NCBI GenBank assembly: GCA_020057405.1
Contig: JAGVFW010000014.1
Coordinates: 32,001-96,000, forward strand
Length of the DNA: 64,000 nt
Direction: 5' to 3'
DNA from: an archaeon
Lineage (GTDB): Archaea; Micrarchaeota; Micrarchaeia; Norongarragalinales; UBA97
The first letter of the stretch is position 1, and each line of letters opens with the position of its first letter. A program made the position numbers and the translations under genes. The notes below the pieces were generated by a model. It had not been told where the DNA came from and did not search any database. It was given only the letters and a program-made list of their open reading frames with translations. Below, piece after piece: positions 31,562 to 47,068 of this stretch.

Positions 31562-31798
31562 CTAGCGCCGTTTTTTCCTTGCCTTTAGGTATGCCGTCAT
31601 TAGCTTGCTCCACACGTGAAGCACCTTGGAACTGAGCTTTCGGTTTAGTTCCACGCAGTTCTTGCAATCTTGCGTAAATCGCCACATTTCATCTTCAGTT
31701 GCGTCAACGCTCTTGTGCTTGTCACACAAGTTCCAAGCAATTGCCAGGTTTTCAAGAGCGTCAAGCTCGTTGTTTGAGATTTCGATTTCAACTCTCAT
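31562..31798 (-). CDS. Small hypothetical protein (CxxH/CxxC)
   Basis: GGTGA SD; CDKH and CKNC pairs. Confidence 0.55.
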   Translation of the reverse strand: MRVEIEISNNELDALENLAIAWNLCDKHKSVDATEDEMWRFTQDCKNCVELNRKLSSKVLHVWSKLMTAYLKARKKRR

Positions 31799-31887
31799 TC
31801 AATCACCACACTAGGTATACGACACGATGAAAATGGTTGCTTTCGGAAGTGGCTTGCCGGACAGCCGCCGCTTTAGCTTGAAGGCCG

Positions 31888-34774: not shown

Positions 34775-35923
34775 ATGGAAGTGCTTTCAAAACTCCGCGA
34801 CGGACGAATTAATGCAGACAATATACTAATCGAGCTTACAATTAAAGAGTACCTTGAACTCGCAGAGAAAATACTAAGCAAAAACGAGTTTCAGCGCCAA
34901 CGAGTAGGCTCATCAAAAACAGTGTACTCCTTGCTAAAAGCAGACTTGTTAAAAGGCTGCGTTATTCCTCCAATTGTACTCGCATCTAGTTCAGATTCAG
35001 AAAAAGCCCTAGATGTTGTCAAGCTTATTGAAAACGGAGATTTACTAATCCTAGATGGACTTCAAAGAACTATGACCTTACTCGATATAAAAAAGGAATT
35101 GGTTGCAAATGGCGATAAAGAAAAATTAGAAGAAATATATAGAGGAAAAATTCGCGTCGAAATATATTCTGGCGTTAATCGTCTTGGAGTACTTTATCGA
35201 ATGCTGACCCTAAATACTGGGCAAACCCCAGTATCCCTTAGACATCAGATAGAAATCCTATATATCGACTACATCAATAGGGACATTAGCGGAATTCACC
35301 TGATACGCGAAGTAGATGACGAAGCACCCGGTAAATCAAAAGAGTACGTTTTTCGGGACATAGTCGATGGTTTTAACGCCTATCTCGATCGCGATATTTT
35401 GCCAATGGATAGACTAGACGTATTAGACAATATCAGGGGACTTGAGAAACTTTCAACGGAGAACCAGAAACTAGACTTGTTCAAGCAGTTTGTGATAACT
35501 TACAATAACTTTATTGAAAAGGTCGAAATGCTCAGTAAAGATTGGGTTCAAGGCGAAAATACTAAAACAATAAGCCGACCATTTGGAAAGACAACTAGGA
35601 AGATCTTTTCAAAGTCGCAGGCAATGACTGGATTCGGATCAGCCGTCGGCAAGCTCGTCGACTACAAATTAGTTACAGGATTCGAACAAATTGACGATAT
35701 GATATCAAAATTAGATAATATCGGGCCGGATACGAGTGCAATTGATCAGCTCCTACTAAACCTTAATACGATTAAAGAGCAGTCTAAGAAAATTGGAACT
35801 TCGCAACGCTTTTACTTCCACTACTTTTTTAGAGAATTATTCAACCATGATGGCGACTCATACCTAAAATTTGATCTCGCCGTACAAAATGGCTACAACA
35901 AATACCTTAGCCAGACGGTCTAA
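34775..35923 (+). CDS. DUF262/ParB-like domain protein
   Basis: FQR, IPPIVL, ILDGLQR, LNTGQTP motifs. Confidence 0.8.
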   Translation: MEVLSKLRDGRINADNILIELTIKEYLELAEKILSKNEFQRQRVGSSKTVYSLLKADLLKGCVIPPIVLASSSDSEKALDVVKLIENGDLLILDGLQRTMTLLDIKKELVANGDKEKLEEIYRGKIRVEIYSGVNRLGVLYRMLTLNTGQTPVSLRHQIEILYIDYINRDISGIHLIREVDDEAPGKSKEYVFRDIVDGFNAYLDRDILPMDRLDVLDNIRGLEKLSTENQKLDLFKQFVITYNNFIEKVEMLSKDWVQGENTKTISRPFGKTTRKIFSKSQAMTGFGSAVGKLVDYKLVTGFEQIDDMISKLDNIGPDTSAIDQLLLNLNTIKEQSKKIGTSQRFYFHYFFRELFNHDGDSYLKFDLAVQNGYNKYLSQTV

Positions 35924-35925
35924 GA

Positions 35926-36987
35926 ATGCCACTAGTTATTGAAAATAGTGGGAACGTCCCATTAAATTTCGCTAGCTACGACAATCCAAAAAAACAAATC
36001 ATCCTAGAACAAGGCGACCTAAGTTGCACACTAGAATACAAGCTGAAATACGATAATCAATTTGACCCAACAAATTTTACAGCCCAGATGCTATTCCACA
36101 ATAACTTATCAGAAAATAATATCTTTCAGGTATATGAAAAAATACTTGGCGAAAGGATCGGCTGGATAATTCCGCTAAGTGCACTCGGATCAAATGAGCA
36201 CGATTATTCCGACAACCCCCACTTTCTTCGATATGCATACGTGGCTTACCGAAAACTAATTGATTCCGATTTTCAAACTAATAAACCAGCATACAAACTC
36301 AACTACACTCTCGAGGACTTCTTCCCACCTAACTCCGCAATATTAGTTTTAAATGATAAAACTCGGAAAATTCCAGATTTCGATATTGACAACTATTTCC
36401 CAACACTATACTTTTACGGATATTATCCCAATTATGTGCGAGTTGAATCAACGAAAGAAATGAGATTTGAAGCAGATCAAAAACGGATAACACTCTATCC
36501 GATTTCCACCGTGCTTCGAGACGAGACCTTCCTAAAAGAATTATTCAAAAACTACCTGAATGTGTCAACAGATGACATTTCAAAATTTCACTTACTTTAT
36601 CAGGTCGTAGAGCTGCTTATAGAACGCGTCTTTAGATCAAAGTTAAAGGCATGGCTTGCCGAGAACCATGAACACGAGGAAGCACATAAACTGCGTGAAA
36701 AAATCCTAGAAATTAGCAATACTGAAAAGCGGCTCGAGATCTTATTTTGCGACTACGTAAAGATTGAACGCCCCTTAACTGAACTCCGATCAATTCTTCT
36801 TGAATTTTTGGACGAAAAATCAGACTCCGACACGCCGACATCAAGGTTACTCTATCAGGCACGAAATGTTATATTTCACGGATATCGCAAACTAACTCCA
36901 GAACAAAAAGCACTCTTAACTGAATTAAATAAGTACTTAGACGAATACCTAGTAAAAGCTGTAGCGACCTACGCCGAAACCACCTAA
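35926..36987 (+). CDS. HEPN-domain protein (putative RNase effector)
   Basis: LYQVVE helix and LYQARNVIFHG (RxxxxH). Confidence 0.7.
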   Translation: MPLVIENSGNVPLNFASYDNPKKQIILEQGDLSCTLEYKLKYDNQFDPTNFTAQMLFHNNLSENNIFQVYEKILGERIGWIIPLSALGSNEHDYSDNPHFLRYAYVAYRKLIDSDFQTNKPAYKLNYTLEDFFPPNSAILVLNDKTRKIPDFDIDNYFPTLYFYGYYPNYVRVESTKEMRFEADQKRITLYPISTVLRDETFLKELFKNYLNVSTDDISKFHLLYQVVELLIERVFRSKLKAWLAENHEHEEAHKLREKILEISNTEKRLEILFCDYVKIERPLTELRSILLEFLDEKSDSDTPTSRLLYQARNVIFHGYRKLTPEQKALLTELNKYLDEYLVKAVATYAETT

Positions 36988-37000
36988 TCCTATCAAAATA

Positions 37001-37042
37001 GGCCGGCAATCCTGGCAAACCACCCAGCCTAGGCTTATAAAG
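37001..37042 (+). promoter_or_regulatory. MTase promoter with tandem CCGGCAA/CTGGCAA boxes and TATA
   Basis: CTGGCAA at 37012, TTATAAAG at 37035; extra CCGGCAA at 37003. Confidence 0.65.
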
Positions 37043-37059
37043 GATTTTTCCCTGATCTT

Positions 37060-38352
37060 GTGGGGATTGTATTGAAGGGCGAAGTTGTGGTTGAAAGGCA
37101 GATTCAGCGTGCTGGCTTGAAGCATGTTGACCATTCTTGGGATTTCGCTAGGGCTAACACTAAGTATTTGACGCACGGAATTCACCCTTACCCGGCCATG
37201 ATGATTCCGCAAGTAGCTAGACGCGCCATTGAAGCCAATAGGGGTACGGCCAAAGTTGGATTGGACCCATTCTGCGGATCCGGAAGTGTTCTTTTGGAGT
37301 TTAAGCTCGCTGGGCTTAGCTCCTATGGAGTCGACATTAACCCATTGGCAACGCTAGTTAGCAGGGTAAAAAATACGCCCATTGCACCCGAAGTGCTGGA
37401 ACAGGAATGGCTCCGCTTGGGCAGGCGCATTGGTGAGATCGCCTTAAGCCGTGATTTCGACGTGCCGCAGTTCTTTAACATCGATTACTGGTTTAAACCG
37501 GAAGTTATTTTGAAACTCGCTGCAATTCGAACTGCCATTGACGAAGTCGTAGATCCAATCACCAGAAATTTCTTCCTCGTTTGTTTTAGTGAAACAGTGC
37601 GCAAGTCGAGTAACACTAGGGGCGGCGAGTTTAAGCTATATAGAATATCCGAAGAGAAATTAGCCGACTACAATCCAGACGCGTTTGAAATAATGTCCGC
37701 AATTGTTAAGCGAAATATTGCGGCAATGGACGAAACATATTCTTTCTGCAAGAAAAACAAGACTGGCAATGTTGAAGTCATTCTTGACGACGTGACAACC
37801 ACTAAAAGCCTTGCAAGTAAGTCGATAGATTTTTTGGTTACATCCCCACCTTACGGTGACAGTAAGACTACCGTAGCTTACGGACAGTTCAGCAGACTTA
37901 GTCTTCAGTGGCTAGGGTTCCCGCAAGAAGTAGTTATGCGATTAGACCAGAGCATGCTGGGGGGAAGGCCCGCACCTAGCCTTGACTTTGAGTTTTCGTC
38001 CCCTTCCCTAGAGAGCGCTGTAACAAAAATAGCTGAAAAAGATGAACTGAGGGCTAGAGAAGTCCTCTCCTTCTTTATCGATTTTCACAAAGCGTCTGAA
38101 AAGTTTGATGCGGTCCTGAAGAAAAAGTCAGGCGTTTGCCTAGTCGTCGGGAATAGAACAGTCAAAGAAATTAAGATTCCCATGGATGAAATCATGGTCG
38201 ACCTTTTCGAAGACTTTGGTTTCGAACACAAGCAAACCATTGTCCGCCAAATTCCTTTAAAACGGATGCCTAGACGCAACAGCCCGACTAACGTCAAAGG
38301 CAATACTGTTTCGACGATGACTGAAGAGAATATCGTGATTCTTTCTCGCTAG
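37060..38352 (+). CDS. N4-cytosine DNA methyltransferase, M.MvaI-like
   Basis: NTKYLTHGIHPYPAMMIPQ, DPFCGSG, DINP, TSPPYGDS.TTVAYGQFS. Confidence 0.9.
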   Translation: MGIVLKGEVVVERQIQRAGLKHVDHSWDFARANTKYLTHGIHPYPAMMIPQVARRAIEANRGTAKVGLDPFCGSGSVLLEFKLAGLSSYGVDINPLATLVSRVKNTPIAPEVLEQEWLRLGRRIGEIALSRDFDVPQFFNIDYWFKPEVILKLAAIRTAIDEVVDPITRNFFLVCFSETVRKSSNTRGGEFKLYRISEEKLADYNPDAFEIMSAIVKRNIAAMDETYSFCKKNKTGNVEVILDDVTTTKSLASKSIDFLVTSPPYGDSKTTVAYGQFSRLSLQWLGFPQEVVMRLDQSMLGGRPAPSLDFEFSSPSLESAVTKIAEKDELRAREVLSFFIDFHKASEKFDAVLKKKSGVCLVVGNRTVKEIKIPMDEIMVDLFEDFGFEHKQTIVRQIPLKRMPRRNSPTNVKGNTVSTMTEENIVILSR

Positions 38353-39071
38353 ATAATTTTCTTTCTGTGCTCAAAGCATAAGTCTAGTTTGCCGGGCAGC
38401 ACTCGAAAACCAGTTCCGTGATCGTGAGGTTTTCCACTAGGATATTGCCCAATTCGAACATCTACTTTTATGACGCCTTGTTTTAGCAATGCAACGAAAC
38501 GCCTAAAGCTAAAACCCCAAAGAAACCACGCCTCATTAAACCAGAATTCTTCACCAAGACCTTTCCCCTTAGACTCGGCCTTAACATACAATAAACCTGG
38601 GTATTTAGACTCAAATCTCTGCCTCAGCGTTGTTCGGTCCCAATAACCAAGCACTTTTCCTCTCTTCGAAACTAGCGCCACTTTATCCGATTTTATTTGA
38701 ATTTTAAAGCCAGACTTTCCTTTGATTTGATTATACGCTAGAGCATTGACCGTAGTATGAAGTTCTTTCTTGCGATTTCCTCGTCTAGAAGGATATCCGA
38801 AGGTACTGAGAAGAACGGAGTTTGCTTTTTGGGGAAGAGGAGACTTCGTAAAGAGAGTCAGCATACTTTTTGCATTTTTCCGACCTGACTTAAGCTCGTA
38901 CAGCTTATCGTCAGGCCCTGGCAGATTGTTCTCAGGTATATTTGAAAGATCTTCGAGGGTTTTTCCTATACCGGTATCCCCAAGTCGGTGCGTCTTTACG
39001 AAACCGGCTTCTTTCGTCTTAATCAGTCGTTCCCGTAACTGTTCTCCGGTGATTCGCCTAGCAGATACCAA
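38349..39071 (-). CDS. MvaI/BcnI-family restriction endonuclease
   Basis: GDTGIGKTLE..ENN..PD..ELKS..LTLFT and HDHGTGFR motifs; convergent with the MTase. Confidence 0.9.
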   Translation of the reverse strand: MVSARRITGEQLRERLIKTKEAGFVKTHRLGDTGIGKTLEDLSNIPENNLPGPDDKLYELKSGRKNAKSMLTLFTKSPLPQKANSVLLSTFGYPSRRGNRKKELHTTVNALAYNQIKGKSGFKIQIKSDKVALVSKRGKVLGYWDRTTLRQRFESKYPGLLYVKAESKGKGLGEEFWFNEAWFLWGFSFRRFVALLKQGVIKVDVRIGQYPSGKPHDHGTGFRVLPGKLDLCFEHRKKII

Positions 39072-39148
39072 TTATTTCATCCTACCGATTTCCTTCTTCA
39101 ATTCCGGCAACGCATCATAAACTACTATTCGAAACTGCTTTTTAAGAC

Positions 39149-39179
39149 CCGGCAAACCACCCTAAATTCAGTTAAAAAC
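39149..39179 (+). promoter_or_regulatory. CCGGCAA box + TATA promoter
   Basis: CCGGCAA 39149, TTAAAAAC 39172, ATG 39201. Confidence 0.65.
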
Positions 39180-39200
39180 CACTAAATCAAAATAGTAGCT

Positions 39201-39482
39201 ATGTTAAAGGAAATTGCCGTTATGCTTGCAGGCATATTAGCTTTATCCAGCATCATTGGGCTAGCGGTAGTATTCACTCAATACTCAGCTTGTATGAATA
39301 AAGCAGGAAGCGCACCCAATCCGGACTGTGTGAGTGCAGCAATTACTGGAAGCGTTTCTTGGCTCGTGAACGAAATAACTTTTCCGCTAAACGTTATTGC
39401 GTGGATCGCAACAAATATAGGCGGAATAATTGGCGCAATCTTAATCCTCGGAGCCATTTGGTTCTTCTTCGGACAAAGGTAA
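39201..39482 (+). CDS. Small membrane protein
   Basis: Hydrophobic N- and C-terminal helices with a Cys pair between them. Confidence 0.6.
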   Translation: MLKEIAVMLAGILALSSIIGLAVVFTQYSACMNKAGSAPNPDCVSAAITGSVSWLVNEITFPLNVIAWIATNIGGIIGAILILGAIWFFFGQR

Positions 39483-39502
39483 TTAAGCACGCTATTTTTG
39501 CA

Positions 39503-40222
39503 TTACCTGACGCCGAACAGTCTTTCAGTCACGAGTAGTGTGTCGTGCGTGTCGGCTTCGAGATATTCGAGGAGTTTCGGGTCCTTGTCGAGCCACATGC
39601 GCCAGATTTTATCTCCCTTTGAGGCGCTGTCGCCCGCCGTTCCTTCTGCCAAGTGCTTTTTCTTCATTAAGGGAAGATCGGAAAACATCGCGTGCTCTAG
39701 CACGGCGGAGAGCTTGAGGTACTTTGCCGTAGTGTTGTCCCGCGCTGCTATTTCGAAGCGGGCGGCGTGCATCACGTCGAGAATAAACGAGCGGGTGAGG
39801 GCGTCTTTTAGGGCCCAGTACCCTTTGGGGTAGACTGGTTTTTCGCCGGGAGCGAGTTTGGCGCGGAGGAACCCTTCGTACTGCTTGAGTTTGAGGCAGA
39901 GGAGCGGAAAGTCGTAGCCGCTGATGTTGTAGCCGGCCAGGACAAGCGGATTTATGGAGGCTAAGACGGTACCTAGTTGCTCTAAGAGCGCGCTTTCGGC
40001 TTCGTCAGTGTCTTGCGCTAGGAGAATGGTTTTGGTGGTGACTTTATCGCCCGTGCGCCAGCTGACGCCGGCCGCCAGGACGCGCTCGTTTGAGAGAAAG
40101 TCGGTTGGAGAAAGGATTTTTGTCTCTAAGTCAATTGAGGCCACGCGGCCCCAGCTGCCGCTCTCTTTGACTACGTCAACGACTTTTCGGACGAACTCTT
40201 CAGTACGCATAAAACCGGCCAT
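39503..40222 (-). CDS. Standalone DEDD 3'-5' exonuclease (RNase H-like fold)
   Basis: ExoI IDLET, ExoII GYNISGYDFPLL, ExoIII YLEAD. Confidence 0.8.
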   Translation of the reverse strand: MAGFMRTEEFVRKVVDVVKESGSWGRVASIDLETKILSPTDFLSNERVLAAGVSWRTGDKVTTKTILLAQDTDEAESALLEQLGTVLASINPLVLAGYNISGYDFPLLCLKLKQYEGFLRAKLAPGEKPVYPKGYWALKDALTRSFILDVMHAARFEIAARDNTTAKYLKLSAVLEHAMFSDLPLMKKKHLAEGTAGDSASKGDKIWRMWLDKDPKLLEYLEADTHDTLLVTERLFGVR

Positions 40223-40261
40223 GACACTCTTTAGGAGGAGGCGAGCATTAAACCCTTACCG

Positions 40262-40302
40262 ACGGCAAGGGCCGGCAAACCACCCTAGAATCGCTTAAAA
40301 AG
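40262..40302 (+). promoter_or_regulatory. Tandem CCGGCAA boxes + TATA promoter
   Basis: ACGGCAA 40262, CCGGCAA 40272, TTAAAAAG 40295, ATG 40324. Confidence 0.65.
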
Positions 40303-40323
40303 CCCTAAAAATATTGTTTTCTT

Positions 40324-40605
40324 ATGGCAAAAGTTTTCGTTGACAGGAACGGTTACAAGCGGTACGCTGATTCGGGAAAGCCCGTGCACCGGCACGTGGC
40401 GGAACAAAAGCTCGGCAGATCGCTGAGGCCCGGCGAAGTAGTGCACCACAAGAACCGCGAAAAGACCGACAATAGCAGACGAAACCTTTGGGTGTTTGGT
40501 AACCAAGGCCAGCACGACAGGGCGCACGAAACTGACGCCAGAAAGTACGGCGAGAAATACAGTTACCAAGGAAAAAAGAAGAAAAGCAGCTGGTGGCCGT
40601 TCTGA
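40324..40605 (+). CDS. Small HNH endonuclease
   Basis: HRHVAE..LGR.L..GEVVHHKN..KTDN...NL. Confidence 0.88.
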   Translation: MAKVFVDRNGYKRYADSGKPVHRHVAEQKLGRSLRPGEVVHHKNREKTDNSRRNLWVFGNQGQHDRAHETDARKYGEKYSYQGKKKKSSWWPF

Positions 40606-40606
40606 C

Positions 40607-41140
40607 CTATTTCATGATTTTGTCAAGTCTTTTTTCTAGCTGATATGCGGTTAGGTCTACTCCATTATTTTTGAATCCTCTTGTTCCATTGATTGAGGTT
40701 ATTTGCATTTTTTCATTGAATGATATTTGCACGTAAAGGAATTTTTCTTCGGTGAGGAGTTCGCGTACTTCTTCTGGGGTAAAGCATAGTGTGACGGCTT
40801 TCCAGTTTTCTATGCTTTTGCTTTTTTTGGTACTGTTTTTTGTAATAAGTGGGTACAGACCGAAAATCAAGTACCAGTCTGCGTTTTCTCGACTGGTTTT
40901 TTCTATGAAATTGTTTAGCCAAAGAATGTGCTTGTTTCCATTGCTATAAAGTTTAGAACTTTTAACTTGGAACCTAGTAGTTTCCGACTTAAGCCCATTT
41001 TTGACTAAAATGAAGTCTACGCCCTTCTGTTGTCTGCTTACGGGGATGTAAAACGCGTAATCTTTATTCTTTTTGAACTTCGTTTGAAGTATTTCGATAG
41101 CTTTGAACTCGGAGTAGGGAATGCTTATGATTGGTTCCAT
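40607..41140 (-). CDS. PD-(D/E)XK nuclease-fold protein
   Basis: YSE..GVDFIL..FQVKSS motif. Confidence 0.65.
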   Translation of the reverse strand: MEPIISIPYSEFKAIEILQTKFKKNKDYAFYIPVSRQQKGVDFILVKNGLKSETTRFQVKSSKLYSNGNKHILWLNNFIEKTSRENADWYLIFGLYPLITKNSTKKSKSIENWKAVTLCFTPEEVRELLTEEKFLYVQISFNEKMQITSINGTRGFKNNGVDLTAYQLEKRLDKIMK

Positions 41141-41215
41141 TCGACCACCACTTGGTTTACTTCTTCGCGATTTAGCAGGGTTTGGTGGAATTTAAAGAGC
41201 CCGGCAAGCTGCGAG

Positions 41216-41617
41216 TTAGGTTTTCAAGTTTGTTTTGGCCCAGGTGTAGATTTTTTCTGTTTGTTTGATGGTGTTGCGGGCGTTTGTTTCGGTTGGTTCT
41301 TCGGCGTCGTATTCCACTAGGTTTTTTCGGCTCAGGATGTCGAGGAGTTGGCGGGCGGTTTCTTTTGCTTGCGGCACGCCAGTTTGCTGCAGCAAGGCGG
41401 CAGCGTCCTCGTGGCGCTGGCCTGCAGAGCGTTGCTTTAGGTAAAAAGTGGTGACGGCGTCGACGCTCGAGATGGCGCAGTGGATGGCGTTTAAGCACGC
41501 GAGGTTCCAGTTGCCGTCTTCTTCAGCTTGCTTCATTCCAGTGTAGAATTCAGTGGCCTTGGTCCAGTAAGAAGCGTACTTGTGCTTGTCAACTGGTCGT
41601 GAAACAATTTGCTTCAA
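41216..41617 (-). CDS. HEPN protein (toxin of MNT-HEPN pair)
   Basis: KATEF..AIHCAISSVDA..GQRH..KNLVEY. Confidence 0.8.
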   Translation of the reverse strand: MKQIVSRPVDKHKYASYWTKATEFYTGMKQAEEDGNWNLACLNAIHCAISSVDAVTTFYLKQRSAGQRHEDAAALLQQTGVPQAKETARQLLDILSRKNLVEYDAEEPTETNARNTIKQTEKIYTWAKTNLKT

Positions 41618-41627
41618 CTACTCTCCC

Positions 41628-42230
41628 TCACTCTTTCGGGTATATGACTATCCCTTCCTTTTCGATGTTTTTAAGTAGGGCTGGGAGTGGTTTGCCGGCC
41701 ATTTCTTTTGCTGAGAAAACAACGGGCATGACGGGATTGCCAAAAACGCTTGCGAGCTCTAAAGAAGCGTCTAAAACCTTTTCAGCCGCAAGACCCTTGT
41801 CGCTAGCGTCACGCACTACCACAAGCAAGTCCAAGTCGCTCGAGGGACGCTCGCTCCGACGAGCAACTGAACCAAACACCACCATCTTGACTACTTTAGA
41901 CAAGTCAAACCGCTTGGCAACCTCGCTAACTATGGCGCTAGCTACTGCGTCAAACGGCTCGTCAGCTTGCCCAAGCGGCCCGGCCAAAAAATGCTTTTCG
42001 TTCAGCTTCCAGACAAACGCCTTGCCCACTTGCTTGCACGACACCAAGCCATTATCCCTAAAAACCTTCAGCGCCTCGCCAGCCTGAGGCTGCGAAACAG
42101 CTGCAGACAAAGCCAACTCTCGGCCAGTAAACTCCTTTGACGGAAACTTCAACAACACGCCCAAAACCCTGGTTCGCGCCTTCGAACCAGCCAAAACACC
42201 CAGAACGCCACGAAAAATCAAGCCAAACAC
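41628..42230 (-). CDS. wHTH-fused minimal nucleotidyltransferase (MNT antitoxin)
   Basis: TGRELA HTH; VFGSVAR..SDLDLLVV. Confidence 0.88.
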   Translation of the reverse strand: MFGLIFRGVLGVLAGSKARTRVLGVLLKFPSKEFTGRELALSAAVSQPQAGEALKVFRDNGLVSCKQVGKAFVWKLNEKHFLAGPLGQADEPFDAVASAIVSEVAKRFDLSKVVKMVVFGSVARRSERPSSDLDLLVVVRDASDKGLAAEKVLDASLELASVFGNPVMPVVFSAKEMAGKPLPALLKNIEKEGIVIYPKE

Positions 42231-42240
42231 CCCACAAACA

Positions 42241-42280
42241 AACCTTACACATATAAGGAAAACCTAACATATAAGGTTTT
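42241..42280. promoter_or_regulatory. Two tandem imperfect palindromes, probable operator of the MNT-HEPN operon
   Basis: CCTTA-cacata-TAAGG and AAAACCT-aacatata-AGGTTTT just upstream of the MNT start. Confidence 0.6.
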
Positions 42281-42327
42281 GGACGAGACGGGGAAATATC
42301 CAAGCTCGCCGACCTAGGATGGAAGGC

Positions 42328-42358
42328 CCGGCAAGGCACTCAAACTGCGTTTAAAAAC
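42328..42358 (+). promoter_or_regulatory. CCGGCAA box + TATA promoter
   Basis: CCGGCAA 42328, TTAAAAAC 42351. Confidence 0.55.
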
Positions 42359-42507
42359 TACAAAAGTAACTTAGTTCTAGAACAAACCGAATTCATTGAG
42401 AATAACGCAATTATCCAATAATATATCAATAAAGACAATACCTATATATATTATTAACAACAATGACATAATATAGGGTGTAGTGGATTGAACTGGTGGC
42501 GGATTAA

Positions 42508-43494
42508 TTGACTAACGGCTTGACTAGACTCGAGATTGAAGCGTTCAGTAAAGCTAGTTCTAGTGGCGAGGTTTCGGCTTCAAAACTTGCTGAAAGTTTG
42601 AATATTTCGCCTAGTTCTGCTTCGCGAATTATCTCTTCTTTAGTGACTAAGGGTTTTGTCACCACAAATAGAAACGGAATAAGCAAGCAGATCACTGCAA
42701 CTTTTTTTCCAGCTGCCCTTAAGCTGAAGGAACTAATTGAGGCTAACCCGCACGTAGAATTTGAATCACTCTTAGACGGAGCTACCCTCCAAGCTCTTTC
42801 AGGCTTTATCCCGGGACCCGCAAGCGTTCACTCTGCAAGTATATCCAGCTTCACTCCAGAAGTAACCGAAAGGAGGGTAGTCTCGATGTTAGTTGAGCGG
42901 GCCGTGCTGCAAAAGACGGGGCACGGCAAGTACGAAATTAGGCTACCGAGGCTCAAGGAATTCGTCGAGGCCTGGCTGCTCCAAGAAATTGAACTAAACA
43001 GACGCAGGGAAGTGCCCGGATCACTCATCGTAAGCGGTCCGCACGGATTGCTTAGAAGCACCAAGCAGGATGTTCCGACCTACATGGTTCGTACTGGACT
43101 AAGCGTTTTCCACGAGTATGGAGTAAGCCTGAACTTCGATTTCGAAGACTACTACTTCAACGCGTTTCTAAACACTCAAATCAATCTAGGAATGGAAGAA
43201 CACTTGATTCACAGCTTGCTCCGCTCTACGCTGCTATCTAGTGGAAGGGAAGTATCTTACGCTCTACTGGTCATGTTCAAAAATTGGGCGAAATTGGATG
43301 CAGAAAAGTTTCTCGAGTACGGCCAGATGCTCGGAGTAAGCAGTGCGTCGGAACGATCTCTTGAATTCATTAAAGTGTTTAATGAGGGCGGGCCGACTAT
43401 GCCTCTAGCCTATGGCAGATTGGTCGAAGGGCCTGTTTTCCCTTCAAGAGAAGAATTTCTGGAGTTAGTGAAACAATATGAACCAAGAGCGTAA
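42508..43494 (+). CDS. wHTH transcriptional regulator / AbiEi-like antitoxin
   Basis: SKLAESLNISPSSASRIISSLVTKGFV HTH; TGLSVFHEYGV motif; coupled to a nucleotidyltransferase. Confidence 0.65.
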   Translation: MTNGLTRLEIEAFSKASSSGEVSASKLAESLNISPSSASRIISSLVTKGFVTTNRNGISKQITATFFPAALKLKELIEANPHVEFESLLDGATLQALSGFIPGPASVHSASISSFTPEVTERRVVSMLVERAVLQKTGHGKYEIRLPRLKEFVEAWLLQEIELNRRREVPGSLIVSGPHGLLRSTKQDVPTYMVRTGLSVFHEYGVSLNFDFEDYYFNAFLNTQINLGMEEHLIHSLLRSTLLSSGREVSYALLVMFKNWAKLDAEKFLEYGQMLGVSSASERSLEFIKVFNEGGPTMPLAYGRLVEGPVFPSREEFLELVKQYEPRA

Positions 43495-44104
43495 GTATTC
43501 CAAAGACGACATTGACGAAGTGCTTAAGGGGGTTGGAAGCAAGCTAGCGAAGCCCTTGGATTGCTACTTGATCGGCGGCTGCGCTATGACGTTCTACAGT
43601 TTGAAACCAGTTACAAAAGATGCTGACGTTTTATTTGAAGACGACTTGGCCGAACACAACTTCTTAACGGCTCTAAAAAAGATTGGCTTTGAAGACTTGT
43701 TTCCAGGTGCAGAAGAATTTAACGTCAAAGCCAAGGACATCCTAATTGGCCCGAATGGCTTAACTTTTGACTTGTTCTCTAAAACCGTAATGGGCGGCCT
43801 AACGCTAAATGCAAGCATGCGCAAACGGGCCGGGAAAGTCGGAGTTTATGGCAAGCTCGCAGTTTACTTGGCTGCTAAGGAAGACATCTACTTGTTCAAG
43901 GCAATAACCAACCGAAAACCGCCACGAGACTATGAAGATCTAGTAACTCTTCAACAGTCCGGTCTTGACTGGAAAACCGTGACAAAAGAGTACGAAACAC
44001 AAATCAAAGATAGGGACGAACTTAGGGAACGCCTGAAAACCAAGCTCGACTACCTGGCAAGCAAGGGCATAATGAGCCCGCTCCGTAGGGCACTAAAAAC
44101 TTAG
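43478..44104 (+). CDS. Nucleotidyltransferase (DUF6036/AbiEii-like)
   Basis: LIGGCAM..TKDAD..FK..R..RDYED motifs. Confidence 0.8.
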   Translation: MNQERKYSKDDIDEVLKGVGSKLAKPLDCYLIGGCAMTFYSLKPVTKDADVLFEDDLAEHNFLTALKKIGFEDLFPGAEEFNVKAKDILIGPNGLTFDLFSKTVMGGLTLNASMRKRAGKVGVYGKLAVYLAAKEDIYLFKAITNRKPPRDYEDLVTLQQSGLDWKTVTKEYETQIKDRDELRERLKTKLDYLASKGIMSPLRRALKT

Positions 44105-45057
44105 CCAATCTCCTTCTTCATCTCAAGCAGCGCTTCCAATCTCTTTGCCGTCAGGGGATGCGTCATGAAGGCCTCAAAAATTCCTGCCTTCTTCTCTTTC
44201 TCGATTGCCTCAACCAACTTGGCGTCGTTCTTCGTCGCTATTGCAGCGGCAATCTCCTTTATCGAATTCGTCTCGCTTCCTGCGGGGTCGGCGAAGTAGA
44301 AGCTCTTGAGGCTGGCGTCGCGTTCGCGCTTGTCGGAGACACCAGCATACGAAATCTTGGCCAAAGCACTCATGAGGGATTGGGGTTTTCTTGTGGCGTA
44401 GGCGGCGTAGGCGTCGGCGTGGTACTCTCGTTGTCTTGAGAGCCACATTACTAGGAGGGTGCCGAAGAGGCGGGCGATTATCGCACCAACGAAGACGGCG
44501 ATGAAGCCTGCGGCGCCTTGGTTGCGGGAGTCGCGGCCGGAGAACATTAGCACTAGGTAATAGAGGATGACGGGCAGGGCGCTTGCGATTGTCATGATGA
44601 AGACGTCGTTGTGCTTGATGTGCGCCATTTCGTGGGCTAGTACAGCTTCCACTTCGTCCTTGTCAAGCATTTTTAGCAAGCCGTCGTGAACTGCTATGCC
44701 GGCGTCGGACTGCGTGCGGCCAAAAGCAAAAGCATTGGGGGCAGGATCGTCAACGAAGTAGAGTTTAGGAGTCGGCACGCCGGCGTCTTTAGCCAGCTTG
44801 GCGATGACAGCGTGCAGGCCAGGCGCTTGCTTTTCGGAAAGCTCCTTCGCACCGGAGACTCGGCGGATGAGCCAGGGGGACACCCACCACTGGATGCCAA
44901 TGAAGAGGAGGGAAATGAAGAGCCAGCCAAGGATGCCCACTTGGGCGCCAGAATACCACAAGACAAGCGCCAGGATGGCGGCGATGACGCCGAAGACTAG
45001 AGCCGAAGTAAGCCAAATCGTCAAGTTAAGCTTTGAAAGACCTTGAGCAGTTACCAT
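44101..45057 (-). CDS. htpX: Zinc metalloprotease HtpX
   Basis: PNAFAFG, HEMAH, SRQREYHAD, THPLTAKRL. Confidence 0.93.
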   Translation of the reverse strand: MVTAQGLSKLNLTIWLTSALVFGVIAAILALVLWYSGAQVGILGWLFISLLFIGIQWWVSPWLIRRVSGAKELSEKQAPGLHAVIAKLAKDAGVPTPKLYFVDDPAPNAFAFGRTQSDAGIAVHDGLLKMLDKDEVEAVLAHEMAHIKHNDVFIMTIASALPVILYYLVLMFSGRDSRNQGAAGFIAVFVGAIIARLFGTLLVMWLSRQREYHADAYAAYATRKPQSLMSALAKISYAGVSDKRERDASLKSFYFADPAGSETNSIKEIAAAIATKNDAKLVEAIEKEKKAGIFEAFMTHPLTAKRLEALLEMKKEIG

Positions 45058-45211
45058 GCAAATCCCACCGCTAGGGAATAGGAAGAGAGGAAATAAAAGA
45101 TAATGACAAAAGCGGCCGGAAGGAGGGTATGGCCGGCAAGGCGGTTGGGAAAGGAACGACCTGTACGGAACCTAAATAGTTTCTAGGCAAACCCGAAAGC
45201 CTTAATAAGAT

Positions 45212-45229
45212 AATCTTACTAGTAAGATT
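45212..45229. promoter_or_regulatory. Perfect 18-bp palindrome, probable AbrB-PIN operator
   Basis: AATCTTACTAGTAAGATT between a TATA-like element and the AGGTGA SD. Confidence 0.7.
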
Positions 45230-45241
45230 TAGGTGATTTGG

Positions 45242-45514
45242 ATGGTTTCAACGGTTGGCGCCGAGATTACTAGAATGTCGTCAAAGGGGCAGGTGGTGAT
45301 ACCTGAAGACATCAGGACCGCACTGGGTCTAGTAGCGGGATCGGTTTTTGCGGTCTACGGGCGAAAGGATGCCGACACCATCTTGCTAAAACGGATCGAA
45401 CTTCAAGAGCCCGCCAAGGCATTTGAGGAAATGGCTAATTGGGGACGAAAGCACGCGAAGCAAAAGGGTCTTGACGTTTCAATCAAGAAAATTCTGGAGA
45501 GTCAACATAAATGA
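45242..45514 (+). CDS. AbrB/MazE-family antitoxin
   Basis: MSSKGQVVIPEDIR motif. Confidence 0.88.
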   Translation: MVSTVGAEITRMSSKGQVVIPEDIRTALGLVAGSVFAVYGRKDADTILLKRIELQEPAKAFEEMANWGRKHAKQKGLDVSIKKILESQHK

Positions 45515-45524
45515 AGTGAGGCTT

Positions 45525-45944
45525 ATGGTGAGAGTCGTTTTTGACCTGAATGTACTAATTTCTGCCGCGCTCTCACCAAAAGGCGCTTCTTACGGAGTAG
45601 TTCAGCTTGCGGCTACCCGCAGGATTGATGGCTATATCTCAATTGCACTAGTTGAACGCCTCAAACTAGTTGTTCAAAGAGACTTTGGCTTAACGTCAGA
45701 GAAGGCGGAAGAGATGGTCGGCGTTTATCTGCAAGTCCTTAAGCTCGTTGAGCCGGACGTGAAGATAGATGAGCTGGAAGATCAGGAGGACAACCGAGTA
45801 CTAGAGTGCGCAGTCCACTCTAAAGCTGACTATTTGGTCTCTTGGGACCCGCATTTAACAAAACTAAACGAGTTTAGGGGAATATCCGCATTCAACCCCG
45901 GAAAAATAATTGAAGTATTACGAGAGGTGCATTCAATTGAATGA
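45525..45944 (+). CDS. PIN-domain toxin (VapC-like)
   Basis: VVFDLNVLISA..DQEDNRVLECA..ADYLVSWDPHL. Confidence 0.88.
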   Translation: MVRVVFDLNVLISAALSPKGASYGVVQLAATRRIDGYISIALVERLKLVVQRDFGLTSEKAEEMVGVYLQVLKLVEPDVKIDELEDQEDNRVLECAVHSKADYLVSWDPHLTKLNEFRGISAFNPGKIIEVLREVHSIE

Positions 45945-46125
45945 CAAACTGCCCAAACAACACAAAAAAGAGAACCGGCCACCAAAAGAAAACAAGTGTA
46001 AAATTTGCCCACAGCCTCTTGACGACCACTGCGAAGGCTGCTGCGAGGAGGTCAAGGCAGGCGTCCACAAGGGAAAGTTCTGCGGCAAGAAAGGAAACGA
46101 AGTAAGCAAAGACGTATTCCGCTAA
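45937..46125 (+). CDS. Small Cys-rich (possible Zn-binding) protein
   Basis: GAGGTG SD before TTG; CKIC..HCEGCC..FC. Confidence 0.45.
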   Translation: MNDKLPKQHKKENRPPKENKCKICPQPLDDHCEGCCEEVKAGVHKGKFCGKKGNEVSKDVFR

Positions 46126-46134
46126 ATCGCTCGG

Positions 46135-46174
46135 CCGGCAGGCCCGGCAAGCCACTGGCTTTTTGCTTAAATAG
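46135..46174 (+). promoter_or_regulatory. Tandem CCGGCA(A/G) boxes + TATA promoter
   Basis: CCGGCAG 46135, CCGGCAA 46144, TTAAATAG 46167, ATG 46198. Confidence 0.6.
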
Positions 46175-46197
46175 GTGACAAAAGCCTCACTCTGCTT

Positions 46198-46281
46198 ATG
46201 CTCACCTACATCGACAAGAAAGGATTCAAGCGCCGCGCGCCGGAACTCCAGAGACTCACTGGCGTTCAGGCACGGGCTTGA
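46198..46281 (+). pseudogene. Possible truncated paralogue of the HNH gene
   Basis: MLTYIDKKGFKR resembles MAKVFVDRNGYKR of the 40324 HNH; same promoter type; similarity stops after ~12 aa. Confidence 0.4.
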
Positions 46282-47068
46282 GCCGCTCACGGATTTCCCT
46301 ACGCATTTGGGGGGTTACGTGCGCGAGCAACCGCGCTTGGGAGAAGCGCAGGCCCGCCATCATGCGATTGCGCAGCATGCTGAAGTTAGTGTCCGGCCGC
46401 ATGGAAAGGTAGTCGAGCACGTCTTGCAGGGCCTTGTAGGCGCGCACGTGGCCGTCGGCGTCGGTCTGCCAAAGGGAAATGTGAACTTGGTCGGCCTTAA
46501 GCGGCCTGTCGGGCTGGCTATGAAGCAAGAGGATGGGCTTGCGCGTCTTGACGGGCTTGCCGGAATCGCGGTTGTAGACGTGAATCATGCCCTCGTCGGT
46601 CGTCTCGTGGTGCAGGATGTCGACAATCGAGTTGTTGGTGATAAACTGCGTCTCGTTAGTCAGGTTGTCGGACTGGTCGATGTGAAACACGCCCATCTTC
46701 AGCCGCTTGCGCGCCATTTCGGCCATGGAAAGCGCGAAAAACGCCCGCCGGTGCGCCTTGACTTGCGCCAGTTGGGGAAAGCGGCCGATGATGATCCTGC
46801 CGCTAATAAGCTCGTACTTGCCGAAGTTCGTCGTCCGCTCGACAAAACGGCCTTCGGCCGCGTCCCACGAAAGCTCGTAGACTGGCTTTCGGTCGCGGGG
46901 AATTTCCAGCTTGAAACCCACCGGCCTTGAGGCGGACTCGGACTCAAGTACGCTCAACGTGACTTTTCCAGGCCCTTCCTTTGCCCGGCCGGGTACTTCA
47001 AAAACGTACTTCCTTACTTTGGGCCCGCGGCTTGACTGCTTCAAGAAAAACAACTCCCAGCAAGACAA
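46256..47068 (-). CDS. Hypothetical basic protein
   Basis: Long ORF with host-like codon usage; start uncertain. Confidence 0.55.
   Translation of the reverse strand: MSCWELFFLKQSSRGPKVRKYVFEVPGRAKEGPGKVTLSVLESESASRPVGFKLEIPRDRKPVYELSWDAAEGRFVERTTNFGKYELISGRIIIGRFPQLAQVKAHRRAFFALSMAEMARKRLKMGVFHIDQSDNLTNETQFITNNSIVDILHHETTDEGMIHVYNRDSGKPVKTRKPILLLHSQPDRPLKADQVHISLWQTDADGHVRAYKALQDVLDYLSMRPDTNFSMLRNRMMAGLRFSQARLLAHVTPQMRREIRERLKPVPERQ

Follow-up and report, generated by a model that had tools for sequence, protein, structure and literature searches.

We analysed a 64-kb stretch of DNA (the window; C14:32001-96000) from a 1,224,631-base, 17-contig metagenome-assembled genome (MAG) of Micrarchaeota, labelled G000 throughout. 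From 34 to 46 kb the window carries an island with a GC content of 38-50 % (flanks: ~56-58 %), in which a short sequence box, CCGGCAA(G/A)CCAC, recurs ahead of unrelated genes. The original prediction, made from the letters of the window, had placed five such boxes (37012, 39149, 40272, 42328 and 46144) exactly 23 nucleotides (nt) ahead of a TATA box. It proposed either that one activator co-induces unrelated defence genes or that the module is a portable recombination joint for cassettes. Direct reading and a pattern scan confirmed all five boxes. CYGGCAA-N16-TTWWAWA matched exactly five times in the window, with a mean expectation of 0.04, and none of 100 dinucleotide-preserving shuffles reached five matches (largest number: 1). 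The distance from the box start to the start of the TATA-like heptamer was exactly 23 nt at 5/5 sites. The bare word CYGGCAA was found 50 times in the window, compared with an expected 28.0±5.1.

Box modules of the island and their genes

A Dazbog-type defence pair opens the low-GC island (34775-36987; PADLOC: DzbA 8e-138, DzbB 1.6e-63). It is followed by tandem boxes on the plus strand (37003..37023; CCGGCAA at 37003 and CTGGCAAACCAC at 37012), a TATA at 37035 and, 48 nt after the box start, the GTG codon at 37060 of a type II DNA methylase gene (37060-38352, plus strand; Pfam N6_N4_Mtase 1.4e-10; PADLOC MTase_II 9e-141). Within the island this methylase is paired with an MvaI/BcnI-type endonuclease. 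The next plus-strand module (39149..39178) consists of CCGGCAAACCAC and a TATA at 39172, with an extra CCGGCAA nearby at 39104. Its ATG at 39201 (+52) begins the gene of a hydrophobic, membrane-like protein of 93 amino acids (aa) with no Pfam family. At 40263..40301 (plus strand), a half-site CGGCAAG and the box CCGGCAAACCAC at 40272 precede a TATA at 40295 and the ATG at 40324 (+52) of an HNH endonuclease gene (plus strand; Pfam HNH_3 4.3e-9). This pair (40263/40272) sits between its own TATA and the TATA of a divergent PolB-exo-like gene (39503-40222, minus strand).

The module at 42328..42357 (plus strand; CCGGCAAGGCAC, TATA at 42351) is followed by an AT-rich leader of 150 nt and then by a winged helix-turn-helix (wHTH) gene (42508-43494) and a gene for a DUF6036 nucleotidyltransferase. 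The 150 nt (~29 % GC, no open reading frame, ORF) may represent a long leader or a small RNA, or else an origin of the plasmid type. In the divergent intergenic region ahead of the wHTH gene (42231-42507), the direct repeat ACATATAAGG occurs twice, near 42249-42275. The last plus-strand module (46135..46173) joins a half-site CCGGCAG at 46135, the exact box CCGGCAAGCCAC at 46144 and a TATA at 46167. Downstream there is only a 27-codon frame (46198-46281, +54), which runs into the 3' end of a convergent minus-strand gene (46256-47068). What this promoter produces may be an antisense transcript or a micro-protein. The second copies noted 9-10 nt upstream were thus confirmed, at 37003 (CCGGCAA), ~40263 (CGGCAAG) and 46135 (CCGGCAG), and starts did follow 48-54 nt after the box at four sites (+48, +52, +52 and +54), the last being that of the 27-codon frame.

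A sixth complete module had been overlooked. It lies on the minus strand at 41668..41698, with CCGGCAAACCAC at 41698-41687 and a TATA ~24 nt on, within the 3' end of a nucleotidyltransferase gene and 81 nt ahead of a HEPN gene (41216-41617, minus strand; Pfam HEPN 1.1e-5), which the nucleotidyltransferase gene adjoins. The three copies noted as lacking the 23-nt spacing exist as well. Two are box-like: CCGGCAAGCTGC at 41201..41212 (plus strand), without a TATA at +23 and without a plus-strand gene downstream, and CCGGCAAGGCGG at 45133..45144 (plus strand), also without a TATA at +23 and ~68 nt ahead of the likely TATA of an AbrB-PIN pair (45233-45944). The third is an exact copy of CCGGCAAGCCAC outside the island (31849..31860, minus strand), 62 nt ahead of a gene for a 78-aa protein (31562-31798) with no Pfam family. 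The boxed genes of the window therefore encode the methylase, the 93-aa protein, the HNH endonuclease, the HEPN protein and the wHTH protein.

The box in the genome and in relatives

Genes of G000 were called with a crude caller of our own, which yielded 1,164 genes (88.4 % coding) and left 11.6 % of the genome intergenic. The exact 12-mer CCGGCAAGCCAC was present in 15 copies in the genome, and the reversed word, used as control, in none. By these crude gene calls, 13/15 exact copies were intergenic, compared with 10/27 copies with one mismatch and 34/253 with two. Of 597 copies of CCGGCAA, 13 carried TT[AT]A[AT]A at offsets of 21-25 nt, whereas almost all other offsets from 7 to 59 gave 0-2. 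The motif-TATA spacing noticed in the window is thus non-random genome-wide, with its peak at offsets 21-25.

A position-weight matrix built from 31 seed sites produced 41 matches of at least 16 bits, compared with two in the reversed sequence. We removed nine that fell within predicted genes, keeping two whose "gene" was a miscall, and refer to the remaining 32 as strong sites. A start codon followed 44-66 nt past the box start in 19/32 strong sites and a TATA-like sequence at 19-34 nt in 17/32. An upstream half-site (GGCA[AG] or GGAAA) was found at 1-14 nt in 12/32, the rate at random positions being 5.7 %. Six strong sites lie within the island, which makes up 0.75 % of the genome, and 26 lie elsewhere. 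TATA-like hexamers peaked 28-31 nt ahead of the start codon in the 405 genes whose upstream spacer spans at least 80 nt. Mostly leaderless transcripts therefore fit, and the box would then lie at ~-50 to -39.

We ran Pfam on 24 box-downstream ORFs of G000 outside the window. Boxed genes included radA (Rad51/RadA 5.4e-86), a Hel308-type helicase gene (DEAD 2e-30; archaeal helicase domain 4, 1e-17) and one Orc1/Cdc6 gene with an exact box (Cdc6_lid 6.5e-18). There were also five genes for LAGLIDADG_3 proteins, one for an HTH plus DUF559/Vsr-like nuclease, and toxin-antitoxin genes (two VapB-type antitoxins, an AbrB/MazE antitoxin, a ParE toxin and a HicB antitoxin). No Pfam family was assigned to 8/24. 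The herA gene is boxed (CCGGCAAACTCC, TATA at +25, GTG at +53), and a gene for a divergent ORC-like AAA+/wHTH protein carries a weak box. The original prediction had noted that the arrangement was not seen at housekeeping promoters. This held for tRNA genes, as none of the 28 found by ARAGORN had a same-strand box 20-120 nt upstream, but it failed for radA, hel308, herA and one cdc6, which carry the box.

For comparison we used 31 genomes, G000 and 30 relatives (G001-G030). The MAGs are 70-97 % complete, so that "not found" in a genome does not equal absence. The exact 12-mer occurred in 8, 6, 7 and 8 copies in G001, G002, G005 and G030, in fewer copies in five relatives and not at all in 21, and the reversed control gave 0 in all 30. 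Nearly all of the relatives' copies lay 21-26 nt ahead of a TATA and ~50-55 nt ahead of a start codon. Allowing for variable spacing, CCGGCAA-N14-18-TTWWAW returned 14, 16 and 15 rows in G002, G005 and G030 (control: 0), with G001 and G006 at control level. Relatives also use a lineage variant of the box, CA[CG][CT]GG[AC]AA. The pattern CASTGGAAA-N12-18-TTWWAW marked 12, 7 and 3 distinct sites in G012, G020 and G023 (control: 0) and had no match in G011 or G027. Bare CASTGGAAA was present in 62, 31 and 32 copies in G012, G020 and G023, compared with 4, 1 and 4 in the control.

The radA gene was located in 30/31 genomes, and we inspected its upstream DNA in 26. A related word stood at the same place, 22-26 nt ahead of the TATA, in at least 20 of these 26 genomes of the order, as counted by eye with the motif known beforehand. 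The word is CCGGCAA(G/A)CCAC in the window's family and CACTGGAAAG, CACCGGAAA(G/T) or CAGTGGAAA(G/T) elsewhere, with CACTGGCAG and CACCGGCGG in a few genomes. Across lineages the motif thus drifts between GGAAA, GGCAA and GGCAG. The radA box of G020, CACTGGAAAGCCAC, bridges both box forms because its GCCAC tail is common to the window's box. By the same kind of reading, the box was clear at 9/22 hel308 promoters (five families) and possible at three more, and herA was boxed in G000, G001 and G002. The element is therefore conserved at orthologous promoters of radA, hel308 and herA.

In a wider sample of 80 radA loci from named Micrarchaeota MAGs, about half were boxed among the matches listed, either before radA or before a preceding small gene. 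Such a gene lies directly ahead of radA in 43/80 loci, and there the box precedes it. It encodes a product of ~80-110 aa in which the segment ...F(Y/F)T(L/M)K(I/V)G... is conserved, and the DNA from its TATA to its start contains the conserved leader word GCTAAATTTCACC.

We clustered 84 box-downstream ORFs from eight genomes and checked the families by Pfam. Recurring boxed groups were RadA (six genomes of the eight-genome set), the Hel308-type helicase (G000, G012 and G020), HerA (G001 and G002, with G000 added by a separate check), LAGLIDADG proteins (G000, G002, G005, G020 and G030), an AbrB antitoxin (G000 and G005) and a protein of 88 aa (G002, G023 and also G000). Single boxed cases comprised TnpB/OrfB_IS605 (two copies) and a PD-(D/E)XK nuclease in G030, DNA methylases in G002 and G020, a PIN protein in G001 and ParE in G012. 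The boxed defence and selfish genes vary by genome, yet they bear the local version of the box.

A putative repair regulon and rival explanations

The fixed spacing, the orientation, the intergenic bias and the conservation at orthologous promoters support the reading of the box as a cis-regulatory element. We consider it probable (about 0.75) that a conserved putative Micrarchaeota transcription factor uses CCGGCAA(G/A)CCAC as its operator or activating site, and that a repair regulon under this factor has been joined by defence and selfish genes. The stable core of the predicted regulon is recombination repair (radA, hel308 and herA). An SOS-like trait is present, as one box is common to the recombinase gene and other repair genes (radA, hel308 and herA; the PD-(D/E)XK nuclease in G030). 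The distribution of the box suggests that one regulator may switch repair genes together with many defence and selfish genes. Of the original proposal of one activator for unrelated defence genes, a co-regulating element near the B recognition element (BRE) and TATA remains the most likely part. It is, however, not a regulon of the defence island, which holds 6 of ~32 sites, and the conserved targets are repair genes.

The box would lie at ~-50 to -39 from the transcription or translation start, a few bases upstream of BRE/TATA, and in many cases another half-site precedes it by 9-10 nt. A protein bound at the box could contact TFB or TBP. The motif, its spacing, its distribution within and between genomes and the identity of the downstream genes are direct observations, whereas we infer the binding of a protein to the box, transcript starts ~27 nt downstream of the TATA, and DNA damage or replication stress as the signal. 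We lean towards activation rather than repression, given that a recognisable TATA is missing from nearly half of the boxed promoters. The conserved targets would be radA, hel308 and herA. Homing-endonuclease, toxin-antitoxin, restriction-modification, HNH and HEPN genes of G000 would have gained the same box, by which the low-GC defence island would have become wired into the repair regulon.

Such a system would be a concrete regulon for DPANN archaea, in which gene regulation is barely known and most of which cannot grow alone. One short site would link RadA, Hel308 (a fork-repair helicase) and HerA (an end-resection helicase) to genes of restriction-modification and toxin-antitoxin systems and to those for HNH, HEPN, homing-endonuclease and TnpB proteins. 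Should DNA damage or replication stress indeed be the signal, the regulon would correspond in archaea to the SOS network of bacteria, with defence islands connected to it. The box may also serve as a sequence bait for finding its regulator.

Several observations weigh against a simple repair regulon with the box as its promoter site. The copies at 41201 and 45133 have no TATA at +23, and the module at 46144 drives only the 27-codon frame; these cases misfit a simple promoter. No box precedes the Dazbog genes, unlike their neighbours, and the island is therefore not uniformly wired. The gene calls are crude, nine matrix matches of at least 16 bits were discarded as lying within predicted genes, and CCGGCAAG is also produced by Walker-A coding sequence. 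The radA and hel308 counts were made by eye, with ~5/26 radA cases ambiguous and nothing seen in G011, and 10/22 hel308 promoters showed nothing clear. Finally, a look-up of sequencing runs for positions 36900-46300 of the window returned none, RNA included, and the start sites and the co-regulation are ones that we infer.

The box could instead be a basal promoter-strength element, read by TFB, TBP, TFE or RNA polymerase in the manner of a bacterial UP element or an extended BRE. We regard this as improbable. The box lies directly next to the BRE position and a recognisable TATA is missing from about half of the boxed promoters, which would fit a contact for TBP/TFB recruitment. TFB and TBP are encoded by a single gene each. 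However, the box marks only ~32 promoters among ~1,160 predicted genes, these are functionally coherent, and 0/28 tRNA genes are boxed. The drift of the motif between lineages (GGAAA, GGCAA and GGCAG) would also speak against a basal function.

A role as cassette junction, with the box or the box-promoter module as a recombination site for gain, loss and shuffling of defence cassettes like integron attC, is very improbable, although several features speak for it. Seven plus-strand copies (37012, 39149, 40272, 41201, 42328, 45133 and 46144) stand in one orientation at successive module boundaries from 37.0 to 46.2 kb, two of them without a TATA or a plus-strand gene, and 6/32 strong sites are packed into 0.75 % of the genome. 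The AACCAC subtype accounts for 4/6 island boxes and is rare elsewhere in the genome (it also occurs at radA of the AT-rich G006). In modules 39149 and 40272 the first 16 nt are the same and much of the next 35 nt agrees, so that promoter modules seem to have been copied locally. These features suggest that box-promoter modules and accessory genes move or are copied together, and copied modules might favour the shuffling of defence cassettes. A dedicated recombination site, in contrast, does not explain why the same element lies at a fixed distance before single-copy radA, hel308 and herA, at orthologous positions in many genomes and across families. Moreover, 26/32 strong sites are outside the island, and the repeats are not confined to an array. 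Scans with Pfam (24 ORFs at 29.9-48.1 kb) and PADLOC (16 island ORFs) revealed no integrase, recombinase or transposase family. We also scanned metagenomes for the Nop5 gene and obtained seven loci, of which one had a useful flank; on this contig, whose Nop5 is 73 % identical, there is no island after the Nop5 gene and no box-marked joint. The portable recombination joint of the original prediction is thus not borne out.

That the island copies are mere remnants of one promoter duplicated with neighbouring genes, with no shared regulation, is scarcely credible: the promoters at 39149 and 40272 are near-duplicates, but the genes that follow are not related to each other, sequence likeness at most sites ends with the 12-nt box and TATA, and the motif stands at orthologous genes across families in which RadA is only 59-72 % identical.

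We compared the putative repair regulon with known systems. In the bacterial SOS response, the LexA box serves as a single operator for the recombinase and further repair genes and for numerous mobile, toxin-antitoxin and prophage genes. The LexA operator lies over the core promoter, whereas the Micrarchaeota box lies upstream of it and is known here from sequence. The sites of Ptr2, GvpE and TFB-RF1 are found directly upstream of the BRE, in fixed helical phasing to TATA, and serve single-operon or small regulons with known binders. Their position is like that of the Micrarchaeota box, but their sequences differ.

The closest published case is that of Halobacterium sp. NRC-1, whose radA1 gene is preceded by an 11-bp ultraviolet (UV)-response motif, TTTCACTTTCA, which lies ahead of the TATA at ~50 nt from the start codon (PMC2556686). 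According to the accessible text of that paper, the motif is common to radA1 and three other UV-B-induced genes (top6B is among the sharers), has a near-match before a transposase gene, and recurs at radA of other haloarchaea and Methanospirillum; its regulator was not known there (PMC2556686). Both motifs are thus promoter motifs at radA and DNA-metabolism genes, and that of Halobacterium also stands near a transposase gene (PMC2556686). As far as this text allows comparison, the two differ in sequence and phylum, and UV induction was measured in Halobacterium whereas our evidence is the sequence itself. The Micrarchaeota set is also larger and rich in defence, toxin-antitoxin and homing-endonuclease genes. 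A radA-type promoter box of DPANN archaea or Micrarchaeota was not found described in the open-access papers searched; subscription journals were outside this search.

Candidate readers of the box

TFB and TBP are each encoded by one gene in the genome, and an alternative general factor is therefore unlikely to read the box. The wHTH protein of the island (42508), which the original prediction had named as a candidate regulator, was not supported: its gene is patchy (12/31 genomes) and was not found in five box-using genomes (G001, G005, G030, G012 and G020).

The boxed 88-aa protein (G000:C17:129541-129807) was also considered. Its family is confined to Micrarchaeota (18 clusters) and boxed in G000, G002 and G023. 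The structural model (predicted local distance difference test score: 92.5) consists of a beta-sheet plus one long helix and gives no evidence for a transcription factor. It had no PDB match at E<=0.001, the weak top rows being COMM-domain and PUR-alpha repeats at E>0.1.

A third ORC-like AAA+/wHTH protein (C1:31831-33048) was rejected as reader, as it was not found in box-using G020, G023, G027, G006 and others. The repeats upstream of its gene are a different motif, and its upstream regions do not share the radA box. The protein itself (405 aa; the locus with its upstream DNA is G000:C1:31650-33048) is 53-73 % identical across 23/31 genomes. Directly upstream of its gene, most of these genomes have 3-8 copies of CT(C/T)TTAC(A/G), unrelated to the CCGGCAA box. 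The copies might represent iterons in an array, an origin, or an operator for autoregulation.

A more specific idea is that the box, now carried by promoters, descends from the origin recognition box (ORB) and is read by a protein of the Orc1/Cdc6 family, and that this Orc-dependent circuit is old and common to DPANN and Sulfolobales. We hold this to be tentative and rather unlikely. If it were true, recombination genes would be coupled by the circuit to the state of replication or DNA damage, and acquisition of the box would repeatedly have brought in defence systems, toxin-antitoxin pairs, homing endonucleases and TnpB elements.

The precedent comes from Sulfolobus islandicus, in which the non-initiator Orc1/Cdc6 protein Orc1-2 binds the oriented sequence 5'-ANTTTC-3' 23-55 nt upstream of the ATG of DNA-damage genes and also regulates its own gene, as shown by binding and genetics (PMC6061795). 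Its targets in the accessible text include pili, Ced and tfb3, and radA was not among the four promoters tested there (PMC6061795). In likeness to this regulon, the variant core CA[CG]TGGAAA contains GAAA/TTTC, and one cdc6 gene of G000 is boxed. As a difference, the link of the Micrarchaeota box to Orc1/Cdc6 is one of motif likeness, and its GAAA appears to be oriented oppositely with respect to the gene, as judged from the same text.

The ORB/mini-ORB consensus is given as CTTCCAGTGGAAACGAAAGGGGT (PMC4153887) or, alternatively, as GTTCCAGTGGAAAC-AAA----GGGGG (PMC1868953) in the accessible parts of these papers. The relatives' core CA[CG]TGGAAA[CG] equals 9-10 consecutive ORB-core positions, whereas the window's CCGGCAAG variant matches only in part. 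The core of the relatives matches with either central base, as in the ORBs of these published consensus descriptions, and is followed a few bases on by a composition-biased second part. However, the Micrarchaeota boxes stand singly or in tandem at promoters rather than in clusters around an AT-rich unwinding element, and their second part is a C-run and not, as in the published ORBs consulted, a G-run, except in G023.

A genome's own radA box (at least 11 of 14 nt) was present upstream of cdc6-A in 3/20 genomes (G000, G023 and G027) and the reversed box in 0/20; the cdc6-A upstream region of G001, which belongs to the same genus as G000, had no box. No ORB-like or box clusters were detected in G000, near either cdc6 gene or elsewhere, or at the cdc6-A loci of 24 relatives, and canonical ORB-like words in G000 were at chance level and inside genes. 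Paired CASTGGAAA words in G020 and G012 were considered as origins and rejected, the former being a gene-internal copy and a tRNA promoter region and the latter a tandem promoter box. Among 28 Cdc6-A and 20 Cdc6-B proteins (encoded in G000 at C17:23957-25051 and at C10, ~92.6-93.8 kb, respectively), no winged-helix residues tracked the GGAAA/GGCAA class, the helix of Cdc6-B being nearly invariant.

Some further observations were made. In G005, G026, G002 and G004, the open frame of radA extends over 773-1088 aa and the RadA match is split in two, which suggests that these genes may contain one or more inteins. At G000:C10:46700-47300 lies a GC-rich region that resembles a structured RNA, in which an exact box at 46958 is followed by two tRNA-like partial repeats and tRNA-Gly (86-nt span). 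In G020, an intron-containing tRNA gene has the box variant in reversed form, placed after its TATA and ahead of its start (G020:C1:~494060-494100).

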